Origin: Cenarchaeum sp.
GTDB lineage: Archaea; Thermoproteota; Nitrososphaeria; Nitrososphaerales; Nitrosopumilaceae
Length of the DNA stretch: 64,000 nucleotides
Reading direction: 5' to 3'
NCBI GenBank assembly: GCA_965242695.1
Contig: CBDESU010000002.1
Coordinates: forward strand, 1,056,001 to 1,120,000
Every line of letters begins with the position of its first letter. The stretch's first letter is position 1. Below are positions 24,805 to 28,311 of this stretch, piece by piece. Made by a program: the position numbers and the translations under genes. Below the pieces are notes generated by a model. The model was not told the DNA's origin and did not search any database. It was given only the letters and a program-made list of their open reading frames with translations.

Positions 24805-25392
24805 CTACGGGCCGGGCGGAAAGAACCTTCCCAGGTCGCCGCGCTCGGCGACAAGGGAGAGCCAGTCGACCTGGTCGCCGCGCGGGGCCGGTTCCCTGCC
24901 GTCCCAGCCGAGCGCCGCGGCCGCGGCGCGGGCAGTCTCGGCGGAGCTCCTGCAGGTCGTGTCGATCTGGATTGTTCTCCCGGGGCCGGCAAGCTGCGCC
25001 GCATCGTGGGCGACGACGCCGAGTATCTCGGCGCCGAGGTTGCCGGCTGCCTTGTCCCACCCGTACTTTCTCTCCGCGTACACCCGTTCTAGCTCGTACG
25101 GGCTGCGCCTGAGCACGACCGCGGCGCCGACCCGGCTGGCGGAGAGAACGTACGGGGCAAGGTGCCCGACGACGAGGCACTTTTCGTCAAGGGCGCCGTG
25201 GGAACGCAGGCGCTCGGCGAGCCGGTCGGGATCGACGTCCGACGTGCGCGAGGCCGCGTCGTACTCGCACAGCCCATATTCGGCGGCAAGCGCGTTGAGG
25301 TCCACCAGCCGCAGGCCGAGCCACGCGGCTGCAGCCGCGGCCGCCGTATGCTTGCCGGTGCCGGGGCTTCCGGTGAGGACGGGGATGCGCAT
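24805..25392 (-). CDS. AK6/hCINAP-like nucleoside monophosphate kinase
   Basis: LTGSPGTGKHT P-loop, VVGHLAPY, VLRR.P..L...Y..R.Y...K...N..AEIL. Confidence 0.88.
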   Translation of the reverse strand: MRIPVLTGSPGTGKHTAAAAAAAWLGLRLVDLNALAAEYGLCEYDAASRTSDVDPDRLAERLRSHGALDEKCLVVGHLAPYVLSASRVGAAVVLRRSPYELERVYAERKYGWDKAAGNLGAEILGVVAHDAAQLAGPGRTIQIDTTCRSSAETARAAAAALGWDGREPAPRGDQVDWLSLVAERGDLGRFFPPGP

Positions 25393-25574
25393 GCGGCCGC
25401 CTCGCAGCAGGCCTGTTATACGGATTGCCGCCCTCCCTTCCGGCGGTGCGGCGCTAGCATCAGGGTTGCCCGGCCACAATCTGGGCATATCTTGAGGCTG
25501 CGCGCACCGCGGCGGTTACTACGGCGGCGCCCCTGCTAGCGGTCCGGTGAGAGTGTCGCTCGGCCAGATGCACG

Positions 25575-26123
25575 CTAGTCGGCGAACGGCTCATCGTCTG
25601 GGTCAAACTGCACCAGCACAACTCGAGCTATTTCATCCTCGCAGAACAATGCCGTATCTCCCACGCGGATCCTCGACCCGTCGTTCTTGAGGCGCCTTGG
25701 ATCCCCCAAGACTATCTCCCTCCGCGGTTCGTCATCGCCTGACGAATTCTTGATCCAGCCATAGTAGCGCTTCGACGATGTGGTATAGACTACTACGTAC
25801 TTGCCTATGTTGTCCAGCATGAAGCTGAACCATGGAGTGTGCCGGCTCATCCGCGATCTCCATACCCTCTTTAGCACATAACCCGCCACCGCACCGTATG
25901 CCAAGGCGATGCCCGATTGGACGGCGATGAGCACGGGAATGTTGCCTACGCCAACGACGGCGGCGGCTGTGAGATAGCTTGGTATGGTCAATGCCAAGCT
26001 GTAAAAGACAAACTGTACCTGCGACTGCACCTCCTTGTACGATGCAATGTACCGTATGAGGAAAAGCGTGTAAAACCCAGGCAGCGCAAAAAACAAAAAG
26101 GCGGTGGGGGTTAGGTCAGTCAT
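25575..26123 (-). CDS. Membrane protein with 3 TM helices and a C-terminal beta domain (DUF6338-like)
   Basis: FFALPGF N-terminal motif, hydrophobic helices, W...F and V.V......YYGWI; lower GC. Confidence 0.75.
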   Translation of the reverse strand: MTDLTPTAFLFFALPGFYTLFLIRYIASYKEVQSQVQFVFYSLALTIPSYLTAAAVVGVGNIPVLIAVQSGIALAYGAVAGYVLKRVWRSRMSRHTPWFSFMLDNIGKYVVVYTTSSKRYYGWIKNSSGDDEPRREIVLGDPRRLKNDGSRIRVGDTALFCEDEIARVVLVQFDPDDEPFAD

Positions 26124-26223
26124 CTTCGATCGGTATTATCGGCTTTCCCTTGGTTGGAACCGGTTCGGATGCGGAGAGCGAGTGGCCGGTCTCACTCTTC
26201 CATTTTCCACGCGAGGTGCCCAT
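26116..26223 (-). CDS. 35-aa small peptide, copy 1 (MGTSRGKWKSETGHSLSASEPVPTKGKPIIPIEDD)
   Basis: TTTATATA box ~25 nt upstream; stop overlaps the downstream gene start (ATGACTGA); only synonymous divergence from copy 2 over the last 18 codons. Confidence 0.75.
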   Translation of the reverse strand: MGTSRGKWKSETGHSLSASEPVPTKGKPIIPIEDD

Positions 26224-26334
26224 TGCAGGGCGCCGCCCCCGCACCCTATATAAACCCCGCCTTGTAGCGCACTGCCCGATGCCCGTGCAGCCCCGCCTAA
26301 TTTTATATGCCATCGATTTGGCCCCACTGCCACG

Positions 26335-26538
26335 ATGAGGTGTGTCAAGCCGCTAAGCGACCGCCAGTGGAAGATGGTCGTGGATCAGCTGAAGAAGGGA
26401 CCCACGCCGGAGATGATCCGGACGGTAGAGTATGCCAAAGAGCACGTCAAGTACATAAAAGAGGTGGACTATAACGAGCACATGGCCAAGTACCGCAAGA
26501 GAGAAGCCAAACAGGGTAGCCGTTCCAGCACGCCTTGA
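26335..26538 (+). CDS. Small hypothetical protein (67 aa), possibly antitoxin-like
   Basis: TTTTATAT box at ~26301; charged, helical composition; function speculative. Confidence 0.65.
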   Translation: MRCVKPLSDRQWKMVVDQLKKGPTPEMIRTVEYAKEHVKYIKEVDYNEHMAKYRKREAKQGSRSSTP

Positions 26539-26812
26539 GCCTGTGCTAGGCCTTGGTGTGCGGGCTCAACAAACGCTGTAGGGATGTTGCAGCGCTACCA
26601 GCTGGGGCGTGAATTGGATGCGGATGTGATGGATAATGTGGTTGTAGCGGATGCATCTCGGCAACCATAGGATACGTGGCCCGAGCGTGACGACTCTCGT
26701 CAAAACCCGCGCCCGGCGCAAGTTTGCTTGACTTTTGGGCAAAAATGTGCTTGGTGGACCTACTAAGAGAGATGGCCGCGTCAAAACGCATGTCACATGC
26801 GGCGTTGGAGGG

Positions 26813-26920
26813 TCAGTCGTCTTCAATCGGTATTATTGGCTTTCCTTTGGTTGGGACAGGCTCTGAGGCATAGATGGCCTCGCCGATCCTCACTTTTGGC
26901 TCTTTGTTTTTGCCACTCAT
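26813..26920 (-). CDS. 35-aa small peptide, copy 2 (MSGKNKEPKVRIGEAIYASEPVPTKGKPIIPIEDD)
   Basis: Same length and identical 18-aa C-terminus as copy 1; TTATA box ~25-30 nt upstream. Confidence 0.75.
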   Translation of the reverse strand: MSGKNKEPKVRIGEAIYASEPVPTKGKPIIPIEDD

Positions 26921-27330
26921 TAAGCCCCGCCGAATCCCCCTCCAATATAACTTTATTGCCCTAAAGCCCCGCTGTGTAGGCGCGCGCCTAGTTGCCGGTC
27001 TAGGCGTGAGTCCGCAGGCGGATGAGGCCGCCTTGCAGTGACAGGCGGGGGGCAGTGCCGCCGTGCCGTGGCAGGTCCATGTTGAGGGCCCGCCATGGCC
27101 GTGATGCCTTGGTCAGCAGACAACAGGCGCGGCACGGCCCCGGGGCTTGGCATGCTCGCCGTGGCGTCGTGCGCCGCTGTGTCGAGCAGGGGCGATCGCC
27201 TGCGTGCAGGGGGGATGGGCGCCAGGACTGCCAGCCGCCGAAGCAATGGGCAACGGGACTAGGCGGGACTTGAGCGCGCATCCGGCATGCCGCCGCCAAT
27301 CGTTTTAACCGTCCTCCCAGCCGGCCGCCC

Positions 27331-28311
27331 GTGGCGGACAGCGGCGGCAGCGACGGCGACTGGCGCCCCTGCCGCATCATATGCGGGGATGCTCGCGAAG
27401 TCATGCGTTGCATGCCGGGCGAGAGCGTCGACCTGAGCTTCTGGTCGCCGCCCTACTTTGTCGGCAAGTCGTACGAGCAAGACCTGGACTTTGACGGATG
27501 GCGCTCGATGGTCGCCGACGTGGTCGGGCAGCACAGGCGCGTCGTAAGGCCCGGCGGGTTCATGGTCGTCAACATCGCCGACATACTGTGCTTTGTGGAT
27601 CCGGACATGCCGCGCATACAGGCCAACTCGCTCTCGCGCAAAAAGGTGCCGATCACGAGGGAGGACGTGCAGAGGACCCTGCGCGACCATCCGGGTGCGA
27701 ACCGGGACGAGATTGCCGCCATCCTCGGGTGCAGCGAGCAGACAGTGCAGCGGCGGCTAGAGCACAACAACGTCCGCGGCGGCAAGTCGATACCCGGCAC
27801 GCGCGTGCTCCTTACGAGCGCGATGGTCGTCGAGTGGGCCGCGGATGCCGGCCTCTACCTGTACGACAAGCGCATATGGCACAAGGATCCAGCATGGATG
27901 AGCAGCAGGTGGCACACGGGGTCGTACCGGGCCGTCGACGAGTACGAGTACGTGCTGGTGTTCTGGAACCCGGGCATTACCGAGTACGACAGGGATCGCC
28001 TGACGGCGCCCGAGTGGGGCGAGTGGGGATCGCGCGGCGTGTGGAACATACGGTCGGTCGCGCGCAACGCCCGCCACGAGGCCGAGTTCCCCGAAGAGCT
28101 TGCAAGGCGCGTCATACGGCTGTTCTCGCCGCCCGGCGGCACCGTCCTGGACCCGTTCGCAGGAACCGGGACGACGACGGCCGTGGCGGCCATGGAGGGC
28201 CGCCGGTGGGTCGGCATCGAGCGGGACCGTCGCTACGCCGACATGGCGCGCACCCGCACCCGCTCGCTGCTCTCAGCCGCGCCCCCTGCCGGCGCCCCCG
28301 CCCAATCCTAA
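27331..28311 (+). CDS. Orphan amino (N4-C/N6-A) DNA methyltransferase, beta class, with inserted HTH
   Basis: ICGDA, SPPY motif IV, H.A.FP.EL, VLDPFAGTGTT motif I; HTH-like RDEIAAILGCSEQTVQRRL. Confidence 0.9.
   Translation: MADSGGSDGDWRPCRIICGDAREVMRCMPGESVDLSFWSPPYFVGKSYEQDLDFDGWRSMVADVVGQHRRVVRPGGFMVVNIADILCFVDPDMPRIQANSLSRKKVPITREDVQRTLRDHPGANRDEIAAILGCSEQTVQRRLEHNNVRGGKSIPGTRVLLTSAMVVEWAADAGLYLYDKRIWHKDPAWMSSRWHTGSYRAVDEYEYVLVFWNPGITEYDRDRLTAPEWGEWGSRGVWNIRSVARNARHEAEFPEELARRVIRLFSPPGGTVLDPFAGTGTTTAVAAMEGRRWVGIERDRRYADMARTRTRSLLSAAPPAGAPAQS

Follow-up and report, generated by a model that had tools for sequence, protein, structure and literature searches.

A short proline-rich gene family linked to DUF6338 in archaea points to a widespread two-part system

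The window analyzed here (the whole stretch of 64,000 nucleotides, positions 1,056,001 to 1,120,000 of contig CBDESU010000002.1 in the Cenarchaeum sp. assembly GCA_965242695.1) harbors on its minus strand two open reading frames (ORFs) of 35 codons that end in the same 18 residues, one of them overlapping the start of a gene for a DUF6338 membrane protein. Both are very probably real coding genes. Small ORFs (sORFs) of this family are invariably linked to DUF6338 in the archaeal family concerned and, together with comparable ORFs beside bacterial DUF6338 genes, point to a widespread two-part system of DUF6338 and proline-rich mini-genes. The best explanation overall, to which we give a probability of about 0.42, is that they encode a soluble, disordered micro-protein that is the partner of DUF6338, probably an antitoxin-like inhibitor, carried in a mobile accessory cassette.

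Two small genes and the frame under selection

The original prediction, made from the sequence, was of two minus-strand ORFs of 108 bp, each behind its own TATA-like box, and sequence reading and the ORF listing agree with it. The features of the module are the following.

26116..26223, minus strand: micro-protein gene copy 1, 35 aa, 108 bp, MGTSRGKWKSETGHSLSASEPVPTKGKPIIPIEDD; conserved tail ASEPVPTKGKPIIPIEDD
26813..26920, minus strand: micro-protein gene copy 2, orphan, 35 aa, 108 bp, MSGKNKEPKVRIGEAIYASEPVPTKGKPIIPIEDD
26247..26254, minus strand: TATA-like box TTTATATA, centre ~27 nt upstream of the copy 1 ATG; read from the sequence, putative function
26944..26950, minus strand: TATA-like box TTATATT, centre ~27 nt upstream of the copy 2 ATG; read from the sequence, putative function
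25575..26123, minus strand: DUF6338 gene coupled to copy 1, 182 aa; Pfam PF19865
25854..26111, minus strand: three predicted transmembrane (TM) helices of DUF6338, residues 5-27, 35-57 and 62-90; AlphaFold2 model
25608..25847, minus strand: C-terminal Sm/LSm-fold domain of DUF6338, residues about 93-172; structure comparison, presumed cytoplasmic side
25450..27000, no strand: low-GC island with the whole module inside, GC 0.53-0.60 versus 0.67-0.75 in the flanks

The position of the boxes implies leaderless archaeal transcripts, and both peptide copies of a sister species (G004), as well as a third copy found in this genome, have their TATA-like box at the same spacing. The end of copy 1 runs into the membrane protein gene as predicted, its stop and the DUF6338 ATG overlapping by 8 nt at ATGACTGA. 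Copy 2 carries ACG at the position equivalent to this start codon and is followed by no intact partner, also as predicted; neither tblastn nor blastn identified a DUF6338 remnant downstream of it.

The tails of the two copies (codons 18-35) differ by 9 synonymous and 0 non-synonymous codon changes, all 9 at third codon positions, and encode an identical 18-aa sequence, while the N-halves (codons 1-17) differ by 1 synonymous and 14 non-synonymous changes. This recount reproduces the figures first given for the pair. None of 100,000 simulated random sets of 9 substitutions kept the tail peptide, whether any base change or transitions only were allowed. Tail residues are likewise kept while the N-half changes in the 10 pairs among the five copies with DNA. 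The 9 to 0 count alone cannot identify the selected frame, since one antisense frame shares its wobble positions with the sense frame, and there 8 of the 9 changes are silent too. Six-frame translation of 12 family members separates the two: the sense frame is open in 12/12, whereas the wobble-coincident antisense frame contains stop codons in 7/12 and the other frames in 6 to 12 of the 12. An overlapping frame, named at the outset as one possible cause of the conservation, does not explain it, and neither does a known RNA family, no Rfam match having been found at E<=1 within 25000-27600. Judged from the sequences, the sense ORF is the selected feature, and the sORFs are under purifying selection at the protein level. 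The eight antisense-silent differences aside, the alternative of a non-coding duplicated element (an attachment site, a promoter-proximal repeat or an RNA motif) or of selection on an opposite-strand frame is effectively refuted by the sense frame with its conserved start, stop and TATA spacing, by the antisense stops, by the restriction of all differences to third positions, by the lack of Rfam matches, and by distant members that keep the amino-acid motif though their DNA has diverged, from ~55% GC to AT-rich.

A peptide family linked to DUF6338

The third copy in this genome (3.9 Mb, 2 contigs) encodes MAKSSKIPRVKLGESLYAAEPLPVKGKPIIPMEDD and has the same ATGACTGA junction. G004 harbors two tandem peptide copies at the syntenic locus, the second of which runs into the start codon of a DUF6338 remnant with ~21 surviving residues; no DUF6338 match was found elsewhere in this 94%-complete genome. 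The spacer between the G004 tandem genes (locus L005, 1300-1440) holds ~6 head-to-tail copies of a 19-nt unit, CCCCCGCACAGCGGCAGCG. Four near-identical variants of copy 2 occur in other assemblies, on several other contigs. Three variants of copy 3 came from a word-based protein search, for which the query was a 48-aa mechanical ORF around copy 3, and a profile search of 1.84 billion representative proteins gave 10 hits, seven of which are further relatives; three of these seven continue beyond the usual stop to a length of 60 aa. The remaining three hits, the repeat proteins P0016, P0021 and P0024, were judged to be spurious low-complexity matches. The other DUF6338 proteins of the archaeal family to which this genome belongs carry a Nitrosopumilus label in a public source.

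The tail is near-invariant across these members (...Y-A-x-x-P-x-P-x-K-G-[KR]-P-I-I-P-x-E-D-D) and the N-half varies. By eye, the N-half of copy 1 (26173-26199, minus strand) shows a compensated +1/-1 shift relative to that of copy 2 (26870-26896, minus strand), AGTGAGACC versus GTGAGGATC, which turns K-V-R-I into K-S-E-T, and it is seemingly because of this shift that copy 1 alone lacks the N-half motif of the family. The peptides are hydrophilic and proline-rich (5 Pro in the 35 residues of copy 1) and have no TM segment, signal sequence, hydrophobic segment, double-glycine leader or Cys/Ser/Thr-rich core. The stretch KGKPIIP matches the SH3-ligand consensus [RK]xxPxxP; being a low-information pattern in a Pro/Lys-rich peptide, it was not used as evidence.

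The peptides had been described as unannotated, and this holds as far as names are concerned: among ten peptides looked up exactly in public collections none is named, although six exist there as called ORFs. No family in Pfam, NCBIfam, PHROGs or PADLOC matches any small peptide (E<=0.1-1), and the ESM Atlas gave no usable peptide match. A pattern search with the peptide alignment returned 89 matches in genome contigs and 123 in metagenome contigs, none of which was confirmed. Full-length peptide matches are absent from 39 of 41 related genomes, nearly all of which also lack DUF6338; four weak matches in related genomes (E 0.01-0.9, over 10-19 residues) were treated as noise.

Homologues of the window DUF6338 protein are present in 7 of 201 sampled genomes of the family, this genome (G000) included, with identities to it of 31-34% by search and ~25-31% in the alignment. 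A profile built from these homologues finds members in 11 of 401 genomes. The gene is rare and its distribution patchy: in a phylum-wide sample of 401 genomes the Pfam DUF6338 model finds 3, all in this one family, and 0 of the 344 outside it; nine sub-threshold PF19865 hits in genus g10, which have an internal TAG, were left out. A pattern search with a DUF6338 sub-alignment gave 66 matches in genome contigs and 130 in metagenome contigs, none confirmed, and two DUF6338 queries found no locus in viral contigs.

An sORF of 33-47 codons lies directly upstream of DUF6338, on the same strand, at all 12 loci, which come from 11 genomes in at least 5 genera, all within the archaeal family of the window genome, and amount to 11 distinct cases, the G096 and G112 loci being near-identical. 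The distance from stop to start ranges from an 8-nt overlap to +31 nt. These sORFs (for example MAEDMQKEKRVKIAESVSASAPKREKPKDPEQK, MEDKKDKEVKQLKTLFHEKSVQINAPKGKPNPPRIDDDD and MGNDSNQDSGKNPGSKYKLAETVVALHPKRPKPTNIDP) share a basic, variable N-terminus, a core [KR]-[IVL]-[AG]-E-S-[IV]-x-A-S-x-P, and a C-terminal end that is K-x-x-K-P or Pro-rich and often acidic. When the profiles of the high-GC and low-GC peptide groups are set against each other, 23 columns align collinearly (P 0.006), a result that is modest alone and is accompanied by an identical genomic position. The G837 and G841 loci, which were found after the peptide family had been defined, both carry the sORF. Flanking genes differ at every locus (transposase, helicase fragment, succinyl-CoA ligase, ammonium transporter, glyoxalase, hypothetical proteins), suggesting that the pair moves as a unit, as a self-contained cassette. 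The expectation that small ORFs would be found upstream of homologous membrane genes is thus borne out at every locus, and the 12/12 linkage and the conservation of the sense frame support the original proposal of a functional micro-protein in a two-gene module with the membrane protein. A functional partnership between peptide and DUF6338 is likely.

DUF6338 is truncated or frameshifted beside an intact sORF at 3 of 13 loci (G004, the third copy of G000, and G841), and the reverse is seen at 0 of 13. The DUF6338 paralogue at the third copy, 59% identical to the window protein (L002 1603-2184; G000:C2, about 1578361-1578927), has a 1-nt deletion ~10 codons into the gene, so that the frame of the annotated ATG ends after 17 codons and the body of the protein continues in the frame of the peptide after its TGA. 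It could be a pseudogene or reflect a (homopolymer) assembly error, or, less likely, be expressed by read-through; an intact orthologue, P0011, exists in a metagenome. In G841 a frameshift splits DUF6338 into two pieces (L072, G841:C1 1336762-1337309), and the 39-aa sORF upstream of it is intact and identical to P0058 of other assemblies.

The window also contains two neighbours on the opposite strand. The DNA between the two peptide copies holds a 67-aa ORF (26335-26538, plus strand), a member of a family that is multi-copy in this genome (18 matches at E<=1, 7 of them below 1e-8). Each of five other copies inspected either abuts or runs into the beginning of a second ORF in the same orientation (~135-190 aa), which by eye has a GNAT-like appearance and whose sole model match is a weak one to NCBIfam GNAT (E 0.097). 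From their sequences the two ORFs would resemble an antitoxin and acetyltransferase-toxin pair; the copy in the window is without downstream partner, and no remnant of a GNAT-like gene was found downstream of copy 2 of the peptide. A DNA methyltransferase gene (27331-28311, plus strand; Pfam N6_N4_Mtase, E 1.4e-35; PADLOC MTase_II, E 7e-110) codes for a type II-like enzyme into which an HTH-like segment is inserted. In G004, too, the peptide pair has this gene as its neighbour, and no restriction gene was noticed beside the one in the window.

Architecture of DUF6338 and bacterial parallels

The partner had been described as a DUF6338-like protein with three TM helices, and both parts of this description hold. 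Over residues 7-151 the window protein matches PF19865 with 34.7 bits (E 1.7e-8), above the curated gathering cut-off of 26.5. Its nearest clusters in the ESM Atlas are DUF6338, its neighbours there include clusters with phage members, and its best match in BFVD is a full-length 197-aa siphovirus protein. The AlphaFold2 model, obtained with a 19-sequence alignment, has a mean predicted local distance difference test score (pLDDT) of 82.3. It shows three TM helices, the third Gly/Ala-rich with an invariant G81, followed by a short helix (97-104) and a six-strand barrel (109-170). The Sm/LSm fold is characterized by an N-terminal helix and, after it, five strands in a strongly bent barrel that can be superposed on Sm proteins of solved structure, and the C-terminal domain of the model has this arrangement: VIA-align superposes it on the Sulfolobus Sm protein 1th7_A with Z 11.8 and a root-mean-square deviation of 1.7 A over 75 residues, 54 chains reach Z>=8, with Sm, LSm and Hfq chains heading the rows listed, and Foldseek gives a probability of 1.0 for an Sm-like barrel. 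The best hit of a sequence-profile search of the PDB is also 1th7_A, at a weak E of 0.072, and sequence identity to Sm proteins is 17-19%. In terms of its predicted structure, DUF6338 is therefore a three-TM protein with an Sm-fold domain.

Sm proteins are soluble RNA-binding rings, and their domains normally build 6- or 7-membered ones. In DUF6338, the 80 C-terminal residues that match archaeal Sm proteins in structure are tethered to three TM helices, whereas the matched Sm chains are small, ~60-130 residues long. In MscS-type channels the TM helices precede an Sm-like beta domain that assembles into a heptameric ring, and DUF6338 has an analogous architecture in that its TM helices, the last of them Gly/Ala-rich, lead directly into an Sm-like barrel. 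It differs in that it lacks the C-terminal alpha/beta domain, no MscS chain is among the fold matches listed, and no match to Pfam MS_channel was obtained. By analogy with Sm rings and MscS, a ring-shaped DUF6338 oligomer is a reasonable expectation. TM3 is followed by a strongly basic stretch (KRVWRSRMSRH), and the loop joining TM2 and TM3 carries no charge; by the positive-inside rule this would place the Sm-like domain in the cytoplasm with an N-out/C-in topology. The peptide, which has neither signal sequence nor hydrophobic segment, would be expected on the same side. Prediction of the complex of peptide and DUF6338 with two alignments gave a score of 0.02 (mark 0.32), which weighs neither for nor against binding.

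The module had been proposed as undescribed. This stands for the conserved archaeal family, but an operon of DUF6338 with small proline-rich peptides is on record: in a proteomics study (PMC10433244, Anal Chem 2023), three novel proline-rich peptides of <50 aa are reported in a predicted operon with DUF6338 in Pseudomonas stutzeri. They were detected in cell extracts by digest-free mass spectrometry with 44-114 peptide-spectrum matches, indicating that such peptides can accumulate (PMC10433244). The authors report no conservation of the peptides outside this species, bring up a possible antimicrobial role, and mention that DUF6338 occurs in biosynthetic clusters. In our literature search this was the sole paper found that mentions DUF6338; nothing was found for PF19865, nothing joining Sm-like, transmembrane helices and anti-phage, and nothing relevant for small proteins with Nitrosopumilus and proline-rich. 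The operon resembles the archaeal module in having several adjacent, co-directional, hydrophilic proline-rich ORFs of <50 aa without known family beside DUF6338, and copy 1 in the window is likewise a co-directional hydrophilic proline-rich ORF of less than ~60 aa adjoining a DUF6338 gene. It differs in that its peptides are said to be confined to one species, whereas the family described here is conserved in at least 5 archaeal genera, with analogues at 12/15 bacterial loci, and in that the archaeal peptide genes precede DUF6338 and extend into its start. What is new is the conservation across archaeal genera, the recurrence of the association in bacteria, on an archaeal plasmid and on a phage-plasmid, and the Sm-like architecture of the partner.

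The bacterial loci come from tblastn searches of annotated plasmids and phages, in which the archaeal query hit 2 plasmid records and a Proteus protein hit 21 plasmid records and 1 phage-plasmid. Examined were 14 of these 21 plasmid records and the phage-plasmid, giving 15 bacterial loci, and in addition Haloferax pHV4; the seven records left out are duplicates of species already taken or partial hits. At 12 of the 15 bacterial loci one to three small ORFs lie within about 0-170 nt downstream of DUF6338; their products are hydrophilic and rich in proline, contain G[YFW]xP motifs and finish in a PPxKK-like sequence, as does MAEKKNDSKNNNQQVEKGYQPNVNGGYQPPKKVDNPSPPPKKP of the Klebsiella phage pJN2-26. 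Acinetobacter soli has three such ORFs in tandem, and A. pittii, A. baumannii and Sphingomonas have two apiece. No motif ORF is present at the Fluviibacter, Gordonia and Streptomyces loci, and no Pfam or NCBIfam model matches the bacterial peptides. Motif ORFs make up 16/48 of the ORFs in the downstream window versus 12/504 elsewhere in the same loci (Fisher p 1.2e-11), and ORFs with Pro >=10% and a grand average of hydropathy <= -0.9 make up 22/48 versus 27/504 (p 2.9e-13), figures to be read with the caveats that the 15 loci are not independent (4 are from Acinetobacter), that overlapping frames were counted, and that GC-rich actinobacterial DNA yields proline-rich ORFs by chance. On the Haloferax volcanii plasmid pHV4, the annotated HVO_RS20460 (L047 2668-2988) encodes a 106-aa, disordered low-complexity protein rich in Ser/Gly/Asp/Glu. 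It ends 12 nt before the DUF6338 gene HVO_RS01955, which makes this a genetically tractable site for the module.

Bacterial DUF6338 genes sit in settings typical of conflict and mobile elements. The Proteus penneri gene is Tn7-like cargo beside genes for a TIR-domain and a caspase-family protein (L048 3823-5191), and the same TIR and caspase pair, divergently oriented, adjoins the DUF6338 unit on a plasmid of the unrelated Curtobacterium (L057 1-1359); according to abstracts, such a pair is the make-up of type IV Thoeris. In Mesorhizobium, nucleotidyltransferase and SLATT genes precede DUF6338 in one string, ThiF and MPN genes precede it in Acinetobacter, a type I restriction enzyme is found in the Gordonia neighbourhood, and toxins of toxin-antitoxin (TA) systems in those of Fluviibacter and A. 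baumannii. Plasmid DUF6338 hits are split into several pieces in 3 of 21 cases.

Possible roles of the micro-protein

According to the mechanism that we favour, both ORFs would encode a soluble, intrinsically disordered, proline-rich micro-protein, each expressed from its own TATA box on a leaderless mRNA, and DUF6338 would have the peptide family as its obligate partner upstream. The window DUF6338 gene, before which no separate promoter was seen in the sequence, may be translated by termination-reinitiation at the overlapping ATGACTGA. Reading of DUF6338 through re-initiation after the peptide would mean that the peptide is made first and in excess, and that the membrane protein arises nowhere without it, which follows an antitoxin-first logic. 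The conserved tail (...[IL]Y-A-x-x-P-x-P-x-K-G-K-P-I-I-P-x-E-D-D) would then dock on the cytoplasmic Sm-like domain and keep the membrane protein inactive, and extra peptide copies could raise the dose or outlast a decayed membrane gene. An inhibitory or antitoxin-like action of the peptide is a tentative part of this scheme. The orphan copies (copy 2 and both copies of G004), the broken DUF6338 genes at 3/13 loci and the 3/21 split plasmid hits would fit a costly effector held in check.

Compared with type II TA systems, the module is a similar two-gene, co-directional cassette with overlapping or abutting stop and start, a small disordered first product ahead of a potentially harmful second one, a patchy mobile distribution, and orphan first genes beside decayed second genes. 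It differs in that the archaeal peptide is 35 aa long and has no DNA-binding domain (RHH, HTH, AbrB or Phd/YefM) and no match to a TA family in Pfam, NCBIfam or PADLOC, and the candidate toxin is a membrane protein with an Sm-like domain; the peptide was therefore not assigned to the type II antitoxins. AcrZ, KdpF and MgtS are hydrophobic single-TM micro-proteins of <50 aa that act on a larger membrane protein encoded beside them. The archaeal peptides share with them the size and the adjacent membrane protein gene, but are hydrophilic, proline-rich and without TM segment.

A more far-reaching version of the inhibitor scheme, which we consider doubtful, is that DUF6338 forms membrane-anchored Sm-like rings that are a latent pore or membrane-disrupting effector, checked by fast-evolving, disordered, proline-rich micro-proteins from adjacent genes, often in tandem arrays, in a hitherto unrecognised pan-prokaryotic TA or abortive-infection module of bacteria, archaea and their plasmids and phages. 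The labile peptide would be lost or degraded, for instance upon viral shut-off of translation or through a neighbouring caspase-like protease, and the effector would be released.

Several observations weigh against an inhibitor of DUF6338. The orphan copies, the broken genes and the split plasmid hits are none of them statistically compelling, and the asymmetry of decay is weak because the sORF is ~5x shorter than DUF6338 and the expected number of disruptions in it is ~0.6. The orphan copy 2 shows strict conservation and has near-identical relatives, indicating that it may act without DUF6338, and copy 1, the one coupled to an intact DUF6338, has lost the N-half motif K-V-R-I-G-E-x-I-Y kept by other members. 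A 35-aa proline-rich peptide without DNA-binding domain is unlike classical type II antitoxins, no defence model of PADLOC matches DUF6338, and no recognisable defence gene lies within ~1.5 kb at the archaeal loci. Between the domains, the gene order is reversed (peptides downstream in bacteria, upstream in archaea), and comparison of the archaeal and bacterial peptide profiles with hhalign gives a probability of 0.1% and 1 aligned column. With no detectable homology, the cross-domain parallel is one of composition, size, copy number and position alone, and its statistics carry the dependence between loci and the compositional bias noted above.

That the micro-protein is independent of DUF6338, binding another cytoplasmic target, for instance through a [KR]xxPxxP-like motif, and merely sharing the cassette, is unlikely, even though this role would best explain the strict purifying selection on the orphan copy 2. 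The four near-identical variants of copy 2 in other assemblies speak for it as well, as does the retention of two intact copies in G004 without a DUF6338 match, where, judging by the undamaged 21-residue remnant of the N-terminus, the truncation nevertheless appears to be recent. It is countered by the tight or overlapping spacing of sORF and DUF6338 at 12/12 loci despite their different neighbourhoods, and by the joint absence of full-length peptide and, nearly always, DUF6338 from 39 of 41 related genomes.

Neither is it probable that the sORF is a cis-acting leader or arrest peptide, which would control DUF6338 translation through a ribosome stalled or paced at the stop/start and release a functionless peptide. 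Conservation concentrated in the C-terminal ~18 residues would suit such a role, ~18 residues being roughly the length that fits in the ribosome exit tunnel, and so would a tail rich in Pro (PxP, KP, IIP), the overlapping or abutting junction at 12/12 loci, and a window DUF6338 gene without promoter of its own. However, the tail is retained in copy 2 and in copy a of G004, each of which has a TATA box of its own but lacks a gene downstream, and at 12/15 bacterial loci the analogous peptides are downstream of DUF6338, where a leader role is impossible; on these grounds the class of regulatory leaders was rejected. Distant members, moreover, conserve the central S-V-x-A-S-x-P and not the last residues before the stop, and the P. 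stutzeri peptides accumulate to 44-114 peptide-spectrum matches (PMC10433244).

It is very unlikely that the genes encode exported bioactive peptides, whether tandem diversifying peptides of antimicrobial type, signalling peptides or precursors of ribosomally synthesized and post-translationally modified peptides (RiPPs), with DUF6338 as exporter or immunity protein. Tandem variant genes by one membrane protein (two in the window, two in G004, three in A. soli, two each in A. pittii, A. baumannii and Sphingomonas) and fast-evolving N-halves would agree with export, as would the antimicrobial role and the biosynthetic clusters raised for P. stutzeri in PMC10433244; those peptides, however, came from cell extracts. 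The archaeal peptides have no signal peptide, double-glycine leader or Cys/Ser/Thr-rich core, and both they and the Sm-like domain are predicted to be cytoplasmic. A RiPP leader is typically N-terminal, whereas here the conserved part is C-terminal and the variation N-terminal, and no modifying enzyme or ABC transporter is present at the window island or at six other archaeal loci; assignment to the RiPP precursors was rejected accordingly.

Micro-proteins of <50 aa are systematically missed by annotation, and few of them have a conserved and testable genetic partner. In a modest reading, the family described here offers a clear case in which selection and synteny alone prove a 35-codon gene. 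The widespread DUF6338 gains an architecture, an obligate small partner in ammonia-oxidising archaea and analogous partners in bacteria. If the membrane protein is indeed an effector and the peptide its inhibitor, the pair would enlarge the TA and defence repertoire by a new kind of module, give the Sm fold a new role, and be among the few such modules common to archaea and bacteria.

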